A stretch of 64,000 nucleotides of DNA from Escherichia phage vB_EcoM_F1, in the sequence record NC_054912.1; one strand, 5' to 3'. The first letter of the stretch is position 1, and every line of letters begins with the position of its first letter. A program made the translations under genes and the position numbers. Under the pieces are notes generated by a model, which ran no database searches, had not been told where the DNA came from, and saw only the letters and a list, made by a program, of their open reading frames with translations. Shown piece by piece: positions 739 through 40,371 of this stretch.

Positions 739-2304
739 ATGACTATCAAAACTAAAGCTGAACTTTTGAACAAATGGAAGCCATTACTGGAAGGTGAAGG
801 TTTACCGGAAATTGCTAATAGCAAACAAGCGATTATCGCTAAAATCTTTGAAAACCAGGAAAAAGATTTCCAGACAGCTCCGGAATATAAAGACGAAAAA
901 ATTGCTCAGGCATTCGGTTCTTTCTTAACAGAAGCTGAAATCGGTGGTGACCACGGCTACAATGCTACCAACATCGCTGCAGGTCAGACTTCTGGCGCAG
1001 TAACTCAGATTGGCCCGGCTGTTATGGGTATGGTACGTCGTGCTATTCCTAACCTGATTGCTTTCGATATTTGTGGTGTTCAGCCGATGAACAGCCCGAC
1101 TGGCCAGGTATTCGCAATGCGCGCAGTATATGGTAAAGACCCGGTCGCTTCTGGTGCTAAAGAAGCATTCCACCCAATGTATGGTCCAGATGCAATGTTC
1201 TCTGGTCAGGGTGCTGCTAAGAAATTCACAGCTCTGGCTGCTAGCACACAAACCACAGCAGGTGATATCTATACTCACTTCTTCCAGGACACTGGTACTG
1301 TGTATCTGCAAGCTTCTGCTCAAGTAACAATTAGTGCAAGCGCAACTGATGCAGCTAAATTAGATGCTGAAATTAAGAAACAAATGGAAGCTGGTGTACT
1401 GGTAGAAATCGCTGAAGGTATGGCTACTTCTATCGCTGAACTCCAGGAAAGTTTCAACGGTTCTACCGATAACCCATGGAATGAAATGGGCTTCCGTATC
1501 GATAAACAAGTTATCGAAGCTAAATCTCGTCAGTTGAAAGCTGCTTACTCTATTGAATTAGCACAAGACCTTCGCGCTGTTCACGGTATGGATGCTGATG
1601 CTGAACTGTCTGGTATTCTGGCTACCGAAATTATGCTGGAAATCAACCGCGAAGTTGTTGATTGGATTAACTACTCCGCTCAGGTTGGTAAATCTGGTAT
1701 GACCCTGACTCCGGGTTCTAAAGCTGGTGTATTTGACTTCCAGGACCCAATCGATATTCGTGGTGCTCGCTGGGCAGGTGAATCCTTTAAAGCTCTGTTG
1801 TTCCAGATTGACAAAGAAGCAGTTGAAATTGCTCGTCAGACTGGTCGCGGCGAAGGTAACTTCATTATCGCTTCCCGTAACGTAGTTAACGTTCTGGCTT
1901 CAGTTGATACCGGCATTTCTTATGCTGCACAAGGTCTGGCTACTGGCTTTAACACTGATACTACCAAGTCAGTATTTGCTGGTGTTCTGGGTGGTAAATA
2001 CCGTGTATATATCGACCAGTATGCTAAACAGGATTATTTCACCGTAGGTTATAAAGGTCCGAACGAAATGGATGCTGGTATTTACTATGCTCCATATGTA
2101 GCTCTGACTCCGCTGCGTGGTTCCGATCCGAAGAACTTCCAACCGGTAATGGGATTCAAAACTCGTTACGGTATCGGTATCAACCCATTTGCAGAATCCG
2201 CTGCTCAGGCTCCGGCTTCTCGCATCCAGAGCGGTATGCCTTCTATTCTGAATAGCCTTGGTAAAAACGCTTACTTCCGCCGTGTATATGTTAAAGGTAT
2301 CTAA
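739..2304 (+). CDS. 23: Major capsid protein gp23
   Basis: 521-aa ORF, MTIKTKAELLNKWKPLLEGEG..., recognised as T4 gp23; length matches. Confidence 0.97.
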   Translation: MTIKTKAELLNKWKPLLEGEGLPEIANSKQAIIAKIFENQEKDFQTAPEYKDEKIAQAFGSFLTEAEIGGDHGYNATNIAAGQTSGAVTQIGPAVMGMVRRAIPNLIAFDICGVQPMNSPTGQVFAMRAVYGKDPVASGAKEAFHPMYGPDAMFSGQGAAKKFTALAASTQTTAGDIYTHFFQDTGTVYLQASAQVTISASATDAAKLDAEIKKQMEAGVLVEIAEGMATSIAELQESFNGSTDNPWNEMGFRIDKQVIEAKSRQLKAAYSIELAQDLRAVHGMDADAELSGILATEIMLEINREVVDWINYSAQVGKSGMTLTPGSKAGVFDFQDPIDIRGARWAGESFKALLFQIDKEAVEIARQTGRGEGNFIIASRNVVNVLASVDTGISYAAQGLATGFNTDTTKSVFAGVLGGKYRVYIDQYAKQDYFTVGYKGPNEMDAGIYYAPYVALTPLRGSDPKNFQPVMGFKTRYGIGINPFAESAAQAPASRIQSGMPSILNSLGKNAYFRRVYVKGI

Positions 2305-32872: not shown

Positions 32873-33375
32873 TTAAAAGTATTTTTTAAAACTCATCATA
32901 ACTTTATCATCAACATCATTATCAATCTGTGCAACAAGGTAAGATGACAGTTCTACTTCTTGTGGCGCGGATTGAACATTATCAGAATTAAGATATTCAC
33001 GAATCCAAGGATATGGATGTTTAACCGGAGCATCGGTAATTGGACATGGAAGACCACACTGTTTCATACGAGATACAGTTAAGTAATCAATAAAGCTCCA
33101 CATGCTATTTGTATTTAATCCAGGAACATCGCCATCTTTAAATAAATGAACTGCCCAATCTTTTTCTTGGCGGTTAACTTCCATGAAAATATCAACTGCT
33201 TCTTGTTCACACTCTTGAGCAATTTTAACCCATTCATCGCCATCAGTGCCAAGTTGAAGTTGACGAATAATATATTGGGTGCCTTTAAGATGAAGCTGCT
33301 CATCACGCGCAATGAACTTCATAATCTTGGCATTACCTTCCATGATTTCCATGTTCTTATGGAAGTTAAAGGTAC
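32873..33375 (-). CDS. nrdB: Ribonucleotide reductase small subunit NrdB, exon 2
   Basis: Translation ...TFNFHKNMEIMEGNAKIMKFIARDEQLHL continues the NrdB sequence; 5' boundary inferred from frame and splice-site rules. Confidence 0.8.
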
Positions 33376-34466
33376 CGTTATGTTCGATTGAGCTCGCTAA
33401 TTCTCAACCCGTTCTCTTATGAACTGCTGCATGTTACCATGCAGACCAGACTATATCACAATCCCGGAGGGATTCTCCCCATTTCGAGTCGCTTGACCCT
33501 ACGTCCGAAGACTAGTCGTTGAACCTTGCTTTGCAATTGTCGCCGTGCCATCGTTTATATGTTGATGGTGATAAATCTTTCTTATCACAATATGGACAAT
33601 TCAATTGAATTCTATTTGGATTTAATTTACATCTGTCATTATGTTTTAGATAAAATCCAGGACCTTTACCAATGTGACCACAGAAATCACATGTAATTTC
33701 TTTTTGTGCAGGATGGGTCCCGTTCTTAACCATTTCTAATGTTTTTGCTGATGTTCTTTTCTTATGGTCTTCTGATAAGAAATGATGTGAACCGTCATTT
33801 ACCCGTTTTGATTGAGTTTCTGACTGCATTTTACCACCGCAAAATACATGAGTACCTTCTTTTATAGCTGCAATATTGCGTTCTTTAACTTTTGCAATAT
33901 GCTCAGCTTGTTGAAAATTATGTATACCTAATGCAACTCTATTTAAATTAGATTTACGCTGTATTTCACCGTCTAAAAGATGAAATGTACCATTTTCTAT
34001 CTTAGATTTAATAGAGGCAATATTTTTAGCTCGTACTTCAGGGATATTAAAAATCTGGATTTCTCTAGATTTTGCGGCTTTAGAAGCTAATTCAGAAATT
34101 TCTTCAGGAGAATATTTCATTCTAAGCTTTATAGCATGACAAGCCTGGTAATCTTTTTGAGCTAAATGTATATCATAATGTTCCTGTATAGAAAGGCACA
34201 TCAAATTATCTAAATCATTATTTTCACGGTTACCGTCTTTATGATGGATTTCGTATGTTCTTCCATCAGAATCTTTAGGTATAGGTCCGTTAGCATCTAT
34301 CCAAATTTTTCTATAGTTCAATTGTGCATCCTCTTAAAAGTATAATCATATTTATATTATACTAATTAAAGGTGCAAGCAAAACCTTGGCTGCTAGTTTT
34401 CCTATAAAGGACTTTCCAGCAATTAAAGGAGTTTTCGATAAACGTTACCGTTTAAAGGCGCATTTT
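33376..34466 (-). mobile_element. Group I intron in nrdB carrying a homing endonuclease ORF (about 1091 nt; boundaries inferred)
   Basis: nrdB reading frame broken between YVSFA and TFNFHKN; exon 1 ends in U and intron ends in G; internal HNH endonuclease ORF. Confidence 0.75.
33512..34321 (-). CDS. HNH homing endonuclease, I-TevIII-like, full length
   Basis: 269-aa ORF inside the nrdB intron; HNH-type motif (EIHHKDGNRENNDLDNL) and C-terminal Cys clusters (CDFCGH, CPYCDK). Confidence 0.85.
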   Translation of the reverse strand: MNYRKIWIDANGPIPKDSDGRTYEIHHKDGNRENNDLDNLMCLSIQEHYDIHLAQKDYQACHAIKLRMKYSPEEISELASKAAKSREIQIFNIPEVRAKNIASIKSKIENGTFHLLDGEIQRKSNLNRVALGIHNFQQAEHIAKVKERNIAAIKEGTHVFCGGKMQSETQSKRVNDGSHHFLSEDHKKRTSAKTLEMVKNGTHPAQKEITCDFCGHIGKGPGFYLKHNDRCKLNPNRIQLNCPYCDKKDLSPSTYKRWHGDNCKARFND

Positions 34467-35142
34467 ACGCAAAAGATACATAAAAACGAATAGCTTCCAA
34501 TGCGTTGATTACATGCAAACAGAGGTAAAGAGATTTCATTAGCTCACGCTTCCAATATGTCTCATGCTCAATAGCATCTTCAATAACGTCTTCGTCTGCA
34601 TTAATTTCTTTTTGGTATTCGATATCAGCTTTAGCATTTTCCCATTCACGGGTTTTAATCAGAACGTCATCATAATAGCGTCCAATGGATTCAGCACGTT
34701 TCATAATAGCTTCATCTAATACAATCTCATCAAATACCTTTGACGGATCAGTATAAAGATTTCGCATGATATGAGTATATGAACGACTGTGAATAGTTTC
34801 ACTAAAAGTCCATGTAGCAACCCATGTATCAAGACTTGGGTCTGAAATTAATGACATAAGTACAGCAGAAGGTGCACGACCCTGAATGCTATCCAAAAGT
34901 GATTGATACTTCAGGTTGTTAGTAAAAATATTTTGCTGATACTGAGGAAGCTTATTAAATTGCGCAGCATCCATCATTAAGTTTACTTCTTCAGGACGCC
35001 AGAAAAATGATAAAGATTTCTCAGTAAGTTCTTCAAATACTCGATGCCGTTGAATATCATAACGCGCAATACCAAGACCTGAACCAAAAAACATAGGTTC
35101 TTTTAAAACATCAACTGGGTTTGTATTAAAAACTGTGCTCAT
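34467..35142 (-). CDS. nrdB: Ribonucleotide reductase small subunit NrdB, exon 1
   Basis: 225 codons ending ...EAIRFYVSFA; matches the class Ia R2 iron-centre region. Confidence 0.85.
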
Positions 35143-35193
35143 AAATTTTCCACTTAGTTAATAGATAGTGACTCGTCCGTGAGTCAAATTATA

Positions 35194-37458
35194 TCATAAT
35201 TTACAGGATGAACAATCTTCAGCTTTTGGAGTTTCTATTTCATAATCATCAGTACCAGAACCATCACGGGTATTATGATAATAGAAATTTTTTCCGCCAA
35301 AATACCAAAAATACAAAAGGTCATCAATCATTATTGACATTGGAACCTTTCCTTTTGGAAAAATCTGCGGGTCATAATATGTATTCGCTGAAGCTGATTG
35401 ACATACCCATTTCAGCATAATAGCTACCTGTGTAAGATAAGGTTTATTACCTTTCTTAGCTAATTTCCACGTATAATCATATAGGTCTATGTTATGCTCA
35501 ATATTGGGCACGACTTGATTAAAGGAGCCCTCTTTTGATTCTTTAACAGAGACTGGTCCACGTGGAGGCTCGATACCGTTTGTACTGTTAGAAACTTGGG
35601 AAGATGACTCACATGGCATAAGTGCTGATAATGTGCTATTACGGATGCCAAAGAGCTTAAGGTCTTCCCGCAGCGACGACCAGTCACAAACGTATTTTGG
35701 AGCTGCGATTTGGTCAATCTTTTTATTGTACCAGTCGATAGGTAATTCGCCTCGAGACCAACGAGTGTCTGAATAATATTCGCAAGGTCCTTTTTCTTTG
35801 GCGAGCTTGATGGATGCTTTAATGAGTCCATACTGTAATCTCTCAAATAGTTCATGTGTTAAATCGTTAGCATCTTCATAAGAAGCAAAGTTACTTGCCA
35901 GCCAAGCTGCATAGTTAGTAACACCTACACCGAGGTTACGACGCTTTTTAGCTTTTTCTGCTTCAGGAACTGGATATCCTTGGTAATCCAAAAGATTATC
36001 AAGAGCACGAACTTGGACTTCTGCCAATTCATTAATTTTATCTTGGTCTTGCCAGTCAAAATTATCCAGTACGAATGCGCTAAGGGTACAAAGCCCAATT
36101 TCAGCATCAGGGCTATTCACATCATTTGTTGGAATAGCAATTTCACAGCACAAGTTACTCTGACGAATAGGTGCCTTTTCACGAATAAACGGAGTATAGT
36201 TATTCGTATTATCAATGAACTGCACATAAATCCTTGCTGTTCCTGAGCGTTCAGTCATGAGCAATTCAAATAGTTCACGGGCTTTAATACGCTTTTTACG
36301 AATATTAGGGTCTTTTTCTGCTGCTTCGTATAATTCACGGAAACGGTCTTGGTCTTTAAAATAAGAATAATAAAGCTCGCCACCCATTTCATGCGGACTG
36401 AACAAAGTAATGTAATCGTTCTTTCCGAATCGTTCCATCATCAAATCATTCAGCTGAACACCATAATCCATATGACGAATGCGGTTTTCTTCTACGCCTT
36501 TGTTATTTTTCAAAACGAGAAGATTTTCAACTTCCAAATGCCAAATAGGATAATAAGCAGTAGCAGCGCCGCCACGAATTCCACCCTGTGAACATGATTT
36601 AACTGCAGTCTGAAAATGTTTCCAAAAAGGAATAACACCAGTATGGCGTACTTCACCCATGCCAATCTTAGAACCTTCAGCACGAATCATACCAACGTTA
36701 ATACCAATTCCAGCGCGTTTAGAGATATATTCAACAATTGAAGCGGAAGCCTTATTGATAGACTTCAATGAATCACCTGCCTCAATAACAACACATGAAC
36801 TAAACTGTCGAGTCGGAGTACGACAACCAGCCATAATAGGAGTTGGCAATGAAATCTGTCGAGTAGATACTGCTTCATAAAAACGGATAACGTGTTTTAG
36901 TCTATCAACAGATTCATCTTGATGCAATGCCATTCCAATAGTCATAAATGCAAACTGTGGAGTTTCATAAATTTGACCAGTGGTTTTATCTTTAACTAAA
37001 TATTTTTCTTTTAATTGCATCGCCCCGGAATAAGTAAATTCCATATCCCGTTCGTGCTTAATTTTTGATTCTAAAAATGTAATTTCTTCTGCTGAATATT
37101 TTGACAATAATTCAGGGTCATATTTACCTTCATTTACACAGTAAGAAATATGGTCAATAAATGAACGTGGTTCATACTGCCCGTAAACATGCTTACGAAG
37201 AGCAAACATTAAACAGCGTGCAGCTACATATTGATAATCAGGTTCTTCAACCGAAATAGAATTCGCAGCGGCCTTAATGACAATAGTCTGAATATCATCA
37301 GTTGTCATTCCATCACGGAGATATGATTTAATATTTTCATATAATTCATAAGGATCTACTGATGTTCCTTCAGCTGCCCAAGATAAAACTTTAATAATTT
37401 TTTGCGGGTCAAAGCTCTGAGAAACACCACTACTTTTGATAACATTAATTAATTGCAT
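35194..37458 (-). CDS. nrdA: Ribonucleotide reductase large subunit NrdA
   Basis: 754-aa ORF with N-terminal ATP-cone region and class I RNR catalytic-site region (NLCCEI, CESSSQ). Confidence 0.95.
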   Translation of the reverse strand: MQLINVIKSSGVSQSFDPQKIIKVLSWAAEGTSVDPYELYENIKSYLRDGMTTDDIQTIVIKAAANSISVEEPDYQYVAARCLMFALRKHVYGQYEPRSFIDHISYCVNEGKYDPELLSKYSAEEITFLESKIKHERDMEFTYSGAMQLKEKYLVKDKTTGQIYETPQFAFMTIGMALHQDESVDRLKHVIRFYEAVSTRQISLPTPIMAGCRTPTRQFSSCVVIEAGDSLKSINKASASIVEYISKRAGIGINVGMIRAEGSKIGMGEVRHTGVIPFWKHFQTAVKSCSQGGIRGGAATAYYPIWHLEVENLLVLKNNKGVEENRIRHMDYGVQLNDLMMERFGKNDYITLFSPHEMGGELYYSYFKDQDRFRELYEAAEKDPNIRKKRIKARELFELLMTERSGTARIYVQFIDNTNNYTPFIREKAPIRQSNLCCEIAIPTNDVNSPDAEIGLCTLSAFVLDNFDWQDQDKINELAEVQVRALDNLLDYQGYPVPEAEKAKKRRNLGVGVTNYAAWLASNFASYEDANDLTHELFERLQYGLIKASIKLAKEKGPCEYYSDTRWSRGELPIDWYNKKIDQIAAPKYVCDWSSLREDLKLFGIRNSTLSALMPCESSSQVSNSTNGIEPPRGPVSVKESKEGSFNQVVPNIEHNIDLYDYTWKLAKKGNKPYLTQVAIMLKWVCQSASANTYYDPQIFPKGKVPMSIMIDDLLYFWYFGGKNFYYHNTRDGSGTDDYEIETPKAEDCSSCKL

Positions 37459-37775: not shown

Positions 37776-37992
37776 ATTGTTCTTCCGTTAAAACAGTAAT
37801 ATCGTAGTAACAGTCAGAAGAAGTTTTAACTGTAGAAATTTTATTATCAAAATACTCACGAGTCATTTTATGAGTATAATATTTTTTGCCATAAATGATA
37901 ATAGGCTGATTTGGTCCTGGAACTTCTAACTCGCTTGGGTTAGGAAGTGTAAAAAGAACGGCACCAGAAGTATCTTTAAATCGTAAAATCAT
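37729..37992 (-). CDS. Hypothetical protein nrdA.2
   Basis: 87-aa ORF. Confidence 0.5.
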
Positions 37993-38300
37993 ATTGCCAT
38001 TTTCCCTTTAATTGCTGGATGCGATTCATAATTTTCAAGGATAAAATCTTTCGGTTTCATGTATTCAGTTAACCAGTAAAGCTGCGTTTCGGTGTCACAA
38101 TTTCCAAACTCTATAGGCCAATCAATTTTAAGTTCACACAGTTCTTTAGGCTCACGACGTAAAATTTCTTTACATTGCTCAGTATGATTCATATAGATGT
38201 GAGTATTACCACCGGAAAATATCAAATCTCCTGGGATAAGATTACACATCTTAGCCACAATATGCGTCAAGGCAGCGTACGAGGCAATGTTGAATGGTAG
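37989..38300 (-). CDS. td: Thymidylate synthase, exon 2
   Basis: Begins [11 protein letters not shown]...; the intron's last three bases AUG give the apparent M of the track ORF. Confidence 0.88.
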
Positions 38301-38746
38301 CATTATGTTCAGATAAGGTCGTTAATCTTACCCCGGAATTATATCCAGCTGCATGTCACCATGCAGATCAGACTATATCTCCAACTTGTTAAAGCAAGTT
38401 GTCTATCGTTTCGAGTCACTTGACCCTACTCCCCAAAGGGATAGTCGTTAGGCATTTATGTAGAACCAATTCCATTTATCAGATTTTACACGATAAGTAA
38501 CTAATCCAGACGAAATTTTAAAATGCCTCTTCCATCTCTTTTCAAAATCTTTAGCACTTCCTACATATACTTTATTGTTTAAAGTATTTTTAATCTGATA
38601 AATTCCGCTTTTCATAAATACCTCTTTAAATATAGAAGTATTTATGAAAGGGCAGTCCTACAATTTAGCACGGGATTGTCTACTAGAGAGGTTCCCCGTT
38701 TAGATAGATTACAAGTATAAGTCACCTTATACTCAGGCCTCAATTA
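38301..38746 (-). mobile_element. td group I intron, 446 nt, with internally deleted homing endonuclease ORF
   Basis: 5' end reads UAAUUGAGGCCUGAGUAUAAGGUGACUUAUACUUGUAAUCUAUCUAAACGGGGAACC..., recalled as the T4 td intron; exon 1 ends UUGGGU. Confidence 0.85.
38448..38615 (-). pseudogene. I-TevI remnant: 55-codon in-frame fusion of the GIY-YIG N-terminus and C-terminal tail
   Basis: Hand translation MKSGIYQIKNTLNNKVYVGSAKDFEKRWKRHFKISSGLVTYRVKSDKWNWFYINA; start matches the I-TevI N-terminus. Confidence 0.7.
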
Positions 38747-40118
<1,372 letters not shown>

Positions 40119-40128
40119 ATTATTTTCC

Positions 40129-40371
40129 TTAAACAGACTTTTTCACAATTTTCCAATCAGCTTTAAACTGTTCAACGTCAGAATGGTAAATCCAGAATCC
40201 TGCGCTTTCTCCGTCTTCATAAAGAGGGCATCCATCGCATTCATCTTCCCATCCCATATCACGTAAAAGATGTTCAGCTTTTTCAACAAGTTCAGAATCT
40301 TTACCGATGATATTAAAATACCATTTACCTTTAACTTCTGAATCTTTGATGCTTTGGCGTTGTAATCTCAT
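40129..40371 (-). CDS. Hypothetical protein frd.2
   Basis: 80-aa ORF. Confidence 0.55.
   Translation of the reverse strand: MRLQRQSIKDSEVKGKWYFNIIGKDSELVEKAEHLLRDMGWEDECDGCPLYEDGESAGFWIYHSDVEQFKADWKIVKKSV

Follow-up and report, generated by a model that had tools for sequence, protein, structure and literature searches.

A 446-nucleotide td group I intron with an internally deleted I-TevI gene in a T4-like Escherichia phage

We analysed a 64,000-nucleotide (nt) stretch of the genome of Escherichia phage vB_EcoM_F1 (NC_054912.1), hereafter called the window, in which the thymidylate synthase gene td is interrupted by a group I intron of the T4 type. The intron is 446 nt long and holds a 55-codon in-frame relic of the gene for the homing endonuclease I-TevI. 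The locus is very probably a degenerate, non-autonomous copy of the mobile T4-type td intron, produced by a deletion from repeat to repeat with the ribozyme kept.

Results

Anatomy of the td locus

The features of the locus are collected in Table 1. The two exons join into an uninterrupted 286-codon thymidylate synthase. As raw open reading frames (ORFs), the two td pieces run from 38744 to 39295 and from 37989 to 38303, the latter with a mechanical start Met before LPFNIASYA. The 5' end of the intron reads TAATTGAGGCC / TAATTGAGGCCTGAG and its 3' end CTGAACATAATG (...CATAATG). The remnant is the sole ORF of at least 40 codons on the td strand within the intron, and its 55 residues are identical to those quoted in the initial annotation of this DNA. 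That annotation had td split at the canonical T4 site (VDVFLG / LPFN) by a 446-nt intron with a single ORF, and the exon boundaries, the sequence and the ORF list bear it out.

Table 1. Coordinates of the td locus in the window.
Feature	Coordinates	Strand	Remarks
frd	39292..39873	minus	precedes td exon 1
td exon 1	38747..39295	minus	183 codons; 3' end GTAGATGTTTTCTTGGGT (VDVFLG)
td group I intron	38301..38746	minus	446 nt; equals the 1016-nt T4/RB3-type intron without positions 222-791
P6a, 5' strand	38655..38661	minus	GUAGGAC; read from sequence
Hairpin hiding the ribosome-binding site, 5' strand	38635..38649	minus	overlaps late-promoter-like -10 box and operator (TTTCATAAATACTTC); A-to-C at 38646
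Hairpin hiding the ribosome-binding site, 3' strand	38610..38624	minus	Shine-Dalgarno GAGG, spacer and AUG of the remnant ORF
I-TevI gene remnant	38448..38615	minus	55 codons, stop included in coordinates; product MKSGIYQIKNTLNNKVYVGSAKDFEKRWKRHFKISSGLVTYRVKSDKWNWFYINA
Deletion junction	38517..38528	minus	AGGCATTTTAAA; crossover within the 9-nt CATTTTAAA
P6a, 3' strand	38460..38466	minus	GUUCUAC; within the last six ORF codons (W F Y I N A)
td exon 2	37989..38300	minus	103 codons and stop; 5' end CTACCATTCAACATTGCC (LPFNIASYA)

The td region of the window is 100% identical to that of Escherichia phage vB_EcoM_FN (FN; MZ170041.1, Tequatrovirus), which was recorded from poultry sewage in Portugal; a preprint gives the isolation source as chicken litter. 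The FN record annotates the 55-codon ORF as a hypothetical protein and leaves the two td pieces unjoined. The frd gene of FN overlaps the start of td directly (39292..39295). RB3, EC128 and G10400 (loci L007, L008 and L010) have an additional 115-codon ORF between frd and td.

Breakpoints of the deletion

Aligned with the T4 intron, as the initial annotation had proposed, and with that of RB3, the window intron shows one 570-nt in-frame gap (RB3 intron positions 222-791) and no other rearrangement. The match of this single-gap alignment is far beyond chance. The deletion is bounded by two direct repeats, AGGCATTTTAAA and AGACATTTTAAA, which both code for RHFK. They are 12 nt long, lie 570 nt apart and match at 11 of 12 positions, nine of them consecutive (CATTTTAAA). 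At the left end full-length introns read GGAAG AGG CATTTTAAA GATTT, at the right end GCT AGA CATTTTAAA ATTTCG, and AGGCATTTTAAAG and AGACATTTTAAAA are the flanks of the junction. The window has GGAAG-AGG-CATTTTAAA-ATTTCG (junction sequence AGGCATTTTAAAATTTCG). Because the junction combines the left and the right flank around CATTTTAAA, the crossover is placed inside these 9 nt.

In T4, slippage or illegitimate recombination classically produces deletions between short direct repeats. Codons 34-223 of I-TevI were probably removed here in such a way, by illegitimate recombination or by slippage of replication between the two 12-nt repeats. Since RHFK is encoded in one and the same frame by both repeats, an in-frame product is automatic, and the 55-codon ORF is best seen as a by-product of the deletion and not as a designed mini-gene.

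The remnant of I-TevI

T4 I-TevI has 245 amino acids (aa). Residues 1-33 of the remnant are identical to I-TevI 1-33 (BLASTP, 33/33, E = 9e-22) and residues 30-55 to I-TevI 220-245 (26/26, E = 3e-17), with RHFK common to both matching halves. The remnant is I-TevI 1-33 fused to 220/224-245, and 190 codons are gone. Full-length I-TevI matches the Pfam GIY-YIG profile over residues 3-90, the catalytic domain being about 90 residues long, and also the zinc finger profile PF22635 (I-TevI_ZnF). The 55-residue product gave a partial GIY-YIG match, a match to profile positions 29-51 of 51 only in I-TevI_DNA-bd (PF20987), and none to PF22635 in Pfam. Its PDB matches are confined to residues 1-34 of 1mk0/1ln0 and, in the 116-residue chain 1i3j, to the last 27 residues.

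The remnant keeps the GIY and YVG strands, R27 and helix 1 of the GIY-YIG domain, and of the DNA-binding domain the final 22-26 residues. Missing from it are the other parts of the catalytic domain, the zinc finger and the minor-groove helix, along with the first half of the helix-turn-helix subdomain. The catalytic domain, the zinc-finger linker and the C-terminal DNA-binding domain of a GIY-YIG homing endonuclease are all incomplete or absent. The fusion proposed in the initial annotation, about 33 first and about 20 last residues of I-TevI in frame, proved to be 33 and 22 residues, and the loss of the linker, the zinc finger and most of the DNA-binding domain is seen in the Pfam and PDB matches as well. 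From its sequence the remnant is most plausibly a pseudogene relic, and the intron around it non-autonomous but probably still able to splice. The peptide would neither cut nor specifically bind DNA, and the intron could no longer home by itself. Annotation pipelines name the 55-aa relic 'homing endonuclease' or 'endonuclease I-TevI', and these names are misleading.

Natural occurrence of the deletion allele

We searched for the junction in other phages. With a 121-nt query, BLAST joined pieces 558 nt apart and deleted alleles could not be separated from full-length ones; an 80-nt query was used instead. The junction was uninterrupted in 6 of the 175 GenBank phage records matching this query. 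These records represent four genomes: FN, vB_EcoM_112 (e11/2; record without source), vB_EcoM-G28 (manure, Germany) and FL18 (Mosigvirus, pig faeces, Denmark). The search of other T-even genomes that the initial annotation had suggested thus yielded the same junction in three further isolates. Half-query matches brought up ECO07P1 and HMGUkp2, which were rejected as carriers since their introns are full length. An apparent 360-nt deletion in TuIa (1517-nt record) was also rejected, the record being a partial coding sequence with a full-length intron.

At least 23 metagenome or run-assembly contigs encode the exact 55-aa protein, and ENA, Logan and NCBI assemblies list it in 31 blocks. Nine metagenome alleles, partly related to each other, were retrieved by exact protein identity. 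Single-residue variants occur on further contigs, one of them on up to 37, and the changes among the variants are S20N, T11I, K33T, V43I and K47N. A word-indexed protein search returned seven proteins, with full-length I-TevI not among them, and is unfit for population ratios. Exact-pattern scans for the junction gave no match in IMG/VR and none in the metagenome contigs of the Joint Genome Institute.

Shorter introns and recurrence of the deletion

With the T4 intron as query, 197 GenBank records had at least 80% of the intron matched. The window allele shows the pattern of a defunct endonuclease, namely an internal 570-nt deletion relative to the full-length version in wild relatives, with the intron retained. 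Shorter introns exist too. A junction giving 319/320 nt was found in 17 GenBank records (HP3, PYps55T and 235Ecol030PP among them), introns of 262/263 nt in 215Ecol030PP and BYEP01, and one of 254 nt in HMD-9. P6a is present in all of them. The 319/320-nt allele is without the promoter, the hairpin and the ORF start; the 319-nt class is a deletion derivative too, because it keeps a relic, mutated and frameshifted, of the ORF's 3' end. Frameshifted N-terminal I-TevI fragments of 56-73 aa are present in metagenomes. The 446-nt allele is the only class found here that is both in frame and equipped with the regulatory region. Loss of I-TevI from a retained td intron is common in wild T4-like phages.

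Carriers of the junction differ by up to 87 of 549 nt in exon 1 and 105 of 312 nt in exon 2. Three 3' intron haplotypes were found among the T4-type deletion alleles: RB3-like, T4-like (C at RB3 position 949) and U5-like. The U5-like haplotype has six shared single-nucleotide polymorphisms in e11/2 and is 99.5% identical to the full-length U5 intron. The three haplotypes point to recombination inside the intron or to recurrent deletion. The deleted intron probably persists and recombines into many td exon backgrounds.

The allele L036 (Logan SRR28523098, 28-kilobase contig; intron 1371..1810) carries the same repeat-to-repeat deletion and a 55-codon ORF (RHFN|ISGG). On either side of the junction its identity to the T4 type is only 89%, and several helices have changes. 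No full-length relative of its intron lineage was present among the records examined. A single ancient deletion is ruled out, because L036 is only 89% identical while the deleted introns of the T4 type share more than 99% identity with full-length ones of that type. By these sequence comparisons the repeat pair is a recurrent deletion hot spot at which the same deletion arose at least twice. The 446-nt allele and the shorter series show that I-TevI is repeatedly lost by microhomology deletion, with the ribozyme kept and orphan introns moving among td backgrounds.

The td exons themselves are mosaic. Phages with near-identical introns differ by up to 34% of the nucleotides of exon 2 (window vs. 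L002-L032), and td of FN consists of an RB3/EC128-like exon 1 and a G8/U5-like exon 2. Another I-TevI fragment was seen in phage ph0021 / vB_EcoM_WL-3 (L016), where an 83-aa protein (P0007) has a Frd.1-like N-terminus, comparable to the window ORF 40129..40371, joined at a shared Cys-Asp-Gly to the last 37 residues of I-TevI. P0007 implies a much larger deletion across frd, td exon 1 and the 5' part of the intron, or else an assembly problem in the record.

Integrity of the ribozyme

Outside the gap, the 3' 221 nt of the FN intron are identical to those of RB3, EC128 and G10400, and the 5' 221 nt differ from them at one base (A101C). This sole ribozyme difference from RB3 and EC128 (1 of 442 aligned positions) falls outside the catalytic core. 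The splice-site hallmarks are as in T4, with the exon 1 end CUUGGGU opposite the intron sequence GCCUGAG (U.G pair of P1) and the terminal G in ...CAUAAUG. The insertion site is that of the td intron and all core helices match RB3 and EC128. The 3' end of the I-TevI ORF forms part of the intron core (PMC2988022). The deletion lies wholly inside the loop closed by P6a, and the 3' strands of P6a and P6, which are the last ORF codons, are retained. Pairing of the two P6a strands was predicted with a probability of at least 0.98 in the 446-nt RNA, and the region of the 3' strand is kept by every natural deletion allele. Exon joining gives an intact 286-codon td in all 26 alleles examined. Because the deletion sits in the dispensable P6a loop and every ribozyme helix is untouched, splicing with normal thymidylate synthase is expected. 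We strongly infer from these alignments that the 446-nt intron should still splice.

Two further differences among td introns were noted. The introns of e11/2 and U5 (L003 and L009) share a two-sided change from A-U to U-A in a hairpin of the 3' half (CAACTTG/CAAGTTG; window 38382..38401). To judge from the sequences, this compensatory change is a small piece of direct evidence of selection on ribozyme structure. The intron of the T4 reference NC_000866.4 (L005) has an extra T at 93/94 (GGACTTGCCC) compared with all other alleles examined, and its length is thus 1017 nt and not the published 1016 nt. Other T4 records (99.9% identity) are without the extra T, which may be a sequencing or strain difference.

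Changes in the promoter, operator and hairpin motif

Upstream of the remnant ORF lies the element TTTAATAAATACTTC. It serves as the late promoter of I-TevI, as the operator of I-TevI autorepression and as the 5' strand of a hairpin by which the Shine-Dalgarno sequence is sequestered on early and middle transcripts; without the hairpin, ribosomes enter P6/P6a/P7 and splicing is impaired (PMC2988022, PMC3014915). The -10 box was placed on AATAAATA by its match to the T4 late consensus TATAAATA and by published descriptions, rather than from a mapped start site.

Across 19 full-length alleles, some of them from lineages 79-93% identical to T4, the motif TTTAATAAATAC within this element does not vary. 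It reads TTTCATAAATAC in the window, where A101C (intron position 101, window 38646) has changed it, and TTTAATAATAC in a second group, which has lost an A from the AAA run. The two sites are 3 nt apart. All 13 T4-type deletion alleles carry one of the two changes and none is wild type: A101C is present in four (FN, L025, L027 and L028) and the A deletion in nine (e11/2, G28, FL18, L024, L026 and L029-L032). The changes are mutually exclusive. Among 166 GenBank records with the region, A101C occurs in FN only and the A deletion in the three other deletion genomes only. No full-length allele with either change was found among about 160 full-length GenBank records. Scans of IMG/VR for the two motif variants gave no match, a result made uninformative by the presence of only three contigs with the wild-type motif there.

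The predicted free energy of the hairpin, -16.0 kcal/mol in the wild type, falls to -21.7 with A101C and rises to -14.0 with the A deletion. A101C turns an A.G mismatch into a C-G pair, which gives an uninterrupted 16-base-pair stem over the Shine-Dalgarno sequence and the AUG. The A deletion lowers the match of the -10 box to 6/8. Neither side of I-TevI autorepression is left in the window, where the DNA-binding domain is deleted and the operator motif is altered. The idea that the deletion created a competing fold which the motif mutations relieved was dropped; folding of the 446-nt RNA showed no such competing structure and predicted P6a and the pairing of the ribosome-binding site in all three variants.

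Discussion

The breakpoints, the homology and the retained helices argue for a T4-type td intron that has lost its endonuclease gene and kept its ribozyme. The folding model and the promoter match suggest that either motif change plausibly lowers expression of the remnant ORF, by different routes: A101C would tighten the hairpin over the ribosome-binding site and the AUG, and the A deletion would spoil the -10 box.

These changes might be compensatory adaptations to the loss of the endonuclease, an idea that we put forward tentatively and with more doubt than confidence. Loss of the I-TevI autorepressor would leave the internal late promoter derepressed. The ORF has been cut from 735 to 165 nt, and ribosomes would reach the P6a/P6/P7 strands much sooner. 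Selection would then favour shutdown of the ORF, through a tighter hairpin at the ribosome-binding site (A101C) or a ruined -10 box (loss of A). If compensation is true, the natural alleles would testify in vivo to the importance of I-TevI autorepression and translational silencing for splicing of the host gene, and the endonuclease would be lost in two steps, under selection, at a deletion hot spot. The association of the motif changes with the deletion offers a cheap experimental handle on natural selection for autorepression and translational silencing of an intron ORF.

Several observations weigh against this picture of a silenced relic in a working intron. The two motif mutations shift the predicted stability of the hairpin in opposite directions, so that a single silencing rationale is unproven, and A101C alters the first position of the putative -10 box. 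L036 has the deletion with the wild-type motif TAATAAATA; coupling of the two is therefore not obligatory. The 13 deletion alleles perhaps stand for two to four independent histories and not for 13. The remnant ORF of the four isolates has no stop or frameshift, which is expected for a young pseudogene yet compatible with constraint. The Rfam group I model RF00028 matches 38349..38756 over its whole length (1-253) with 40.5 bits (E = 1.7e-8), under the gathering score of 50. At the gathering threshold Rfam gave no match across the whole window, and the td intron appears at the E-value threshold only. RF00028 scores other phage introns poorly too, the nrdB intron of the window reaching 38.1 bits.

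The order of events may have been the reverse, with a motif mutation silencing I-TevI first in two lineages and each lineage then independently losing the silent gene at the one hot spot. The motif changes would then have caused the decay instead of answering it. In their standard life cycle homing endonucleases decay once function is lost (PMC5009752), the deletion demonstrably recurs (L036), and the mutually exclusive mutations divide the deletion alleles into two groups. Four events are needed for this order, compared with three when the deletion came first, and the full-length intermediates carrying either mutation are missing from the GenBank records surveyed. Moreover, random deletions should mostly hit the abundant introns with a wild-type promoter, yet none of the 13 T4-type alleles is of that kind. 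We regard the reversed order as possible but rather doubtful.

The motif mutations could also be neutral hitch-hikers, that is, private changes of two founder deletion alleles. Only two mutational events would be needed, one of them the loss of a single base in an AAA run, a mutation-prone context, and the intact motif of the L036 deletion allele fits such a history. It is harder to reconcile with the position of the changes. Of the 446 nt of the FN-type intron, a single base departs from the full-length consensus. The shared difference of the other group lies 3 nt away, and both strike a 12-nt element in which full-length lineages diverged by up to about 20% show no variation. The rough chance that both founder changes fall in an element of about 20 nt in a 446-nt intron is about 0.2%. 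We consider neutral hitch-hiking unlikely.

According to the initial annotation, the remnant could be a mini-protein that keeps the autoregulatory context. Selection would then hold the 55-residue product in frame as a residual autorepressor, a dominant-negative or an anti-homing factor. The ORF, the Shine-Dalgarno sequence and the AUG are indeed intact in all four isolates and on many contigs, and at the shared RHFK of the fusion, helix 1 of the GIY-YIG domain runs on into the turn and last helix region of the DNA-binding domain. AlphaFold, run on the single sequence, gave a moderately confident, compact beta-beta-alpha-beta-beta fold (mean predicted local distance difference test score 68.6), but the model shows no helix-turn-helix and, with no alignment depth, is of low confidence as a structure. 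Retention of the frame is automatic for a deletion between in-frame repeats, whereas the catalytic residues past 33, the zinc finger, the minor-groove helix and over half of the DNA-binding profile are gone. The promoter/operator motif is mutated in every T4-type copy, and the FN hairpin is strengthened by about 5.7 kcal/mol; both point to less expression. Amino-acid changes are scattered in the variants, and the peptide is dispensable, as judged from the 17 GenBank records (319/320 nt) without the ORF start and from the shorter alleles. A functional mini-protein is highly improbable.

Many ORF-deleted td introns have been engineered, for example the altered-P6 td ribozymes (PMC8565351), but a laboratory construct or assembly artefact can be dismissed for the window allele, whose junction recurs in isolates from Portugal, Germany and Denmark and in e11/2 with differing exons as well as in ENA and Logan assemblies of unrelated samples, and lies at a natural microhomology and not at a restriction site.

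Comparison with known systems

The literature that we searched, with the T-even surveys of Sandegren and Sjoberg (2004/2005) outside its coverage, gave no description of ORF-deleted td introns in wild phages, and the genome notes of e11/2 and FN do not discuss the deletion allele. The window allele itself appears previously undescribed in that literature; it belongs to a kind already known, with T4 I-TevIII as the precedent. The full-length td introns of T4, RB3, T6 and other phages share with it the insertion site, the ribozyme (0-1 differences), the architecture of the hairpin at the ribosome-binding site and the start and stop of the ORF. Unlike them, the window intron is without 570 nt (190 codons), has a mutated promoter/operator motif and has no endonuclease. 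Because the endonuclease is gone, neither autonomous homing nor autorepression is expected of it.

ORF-deleted td introns engineered as deletion derivatives in the Belfort laboratory have reportedly been used as self-splicing ribozymes. Their deletions, like that in the window, are restricted to the P6/P6a peripheral loop, and the engineered introns still splice. Ribozymes from the td intron with altered P6 are in use (PMC8565351). Unlike these, the window allele is natural, has breakpoints at microhomology and retains the regulatory region and an in-frame ORF.

The life cycle of homing endonucleases runs through invasion, fixation, degeneration and loss (PMC5009752, PMC2988022). The window allele fits the stage of degeneration and, together with the 320-, 262- and 254-nt alleles, forms a graded series towards an ORF-less intron. 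Two features depart from the scheme: decay proceeds by recurrent microhomology deletion at a hot spot and not by point mutations, and the ORF-less introns are spread over many exon backgrounds instead of fading in one lineage.

The closest precedent, by analogy, is the deleted I-TevIII of T4. As summarised in later papers, I-TevIII in the T4 nrdB intron is internally deleted and defunct and RB3 has a full-length version (Eddy & Gold 1991, via PMC1865063, PMC2790892). In T4 the neighbouring gene mobE mobilises this nrdB intron in trans (PMC1865063, PMC2790892). Both cases concern a T-even group I intron in a gene of nucleotide metabolism, with an ORF internally deleted relative to wild full-length versions and a retained ribozyme, and both introns are non-autonomous yet persist in phage populations. 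The intron and the gene are different, and the nuclease of the window is of the GIY-YIG type whereas I-TevIII is an HNH enzyme. T4 I-TevIII lost its catalytic N-terminus and keeps the DNA-binding part, while the window remnant consists of the two termini only, with both domains gutted. The T4 nrdB intron has mobE alongside, but no free-standing nuclease gene adjoins td in the window.

The gap between nrdA and nrdB in the window is about 52 nt (35142..35194); mobE of T4 is absent and there is no room for it. Two metagenome contigs with the deleted intron, L027 (2358..3089) and L029 (2382..3113), contain an ORF for a 243-aa GIY-YIG protein on the opposite strand between nrdA.2 and nrdA, a free-standing nuclease gene near td which could in principle mobilise the region of the deleted intron in trans. 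The nrdB gene of the window (33360..34470, minus strand) is also split by a group I intron (RF00028 match at 33427..33704). The ORF of this intron, 33512..34321, codes for a 269-aa HNH protein, which is full length and equal in length to I-TevIII of RB3. FN is the mirror image of T4 in this respect: its nrdB intron ORF is of full length and its I-TevI is deleted, whereas in T4 I-TevI is intact and I-TevIII is deleted.

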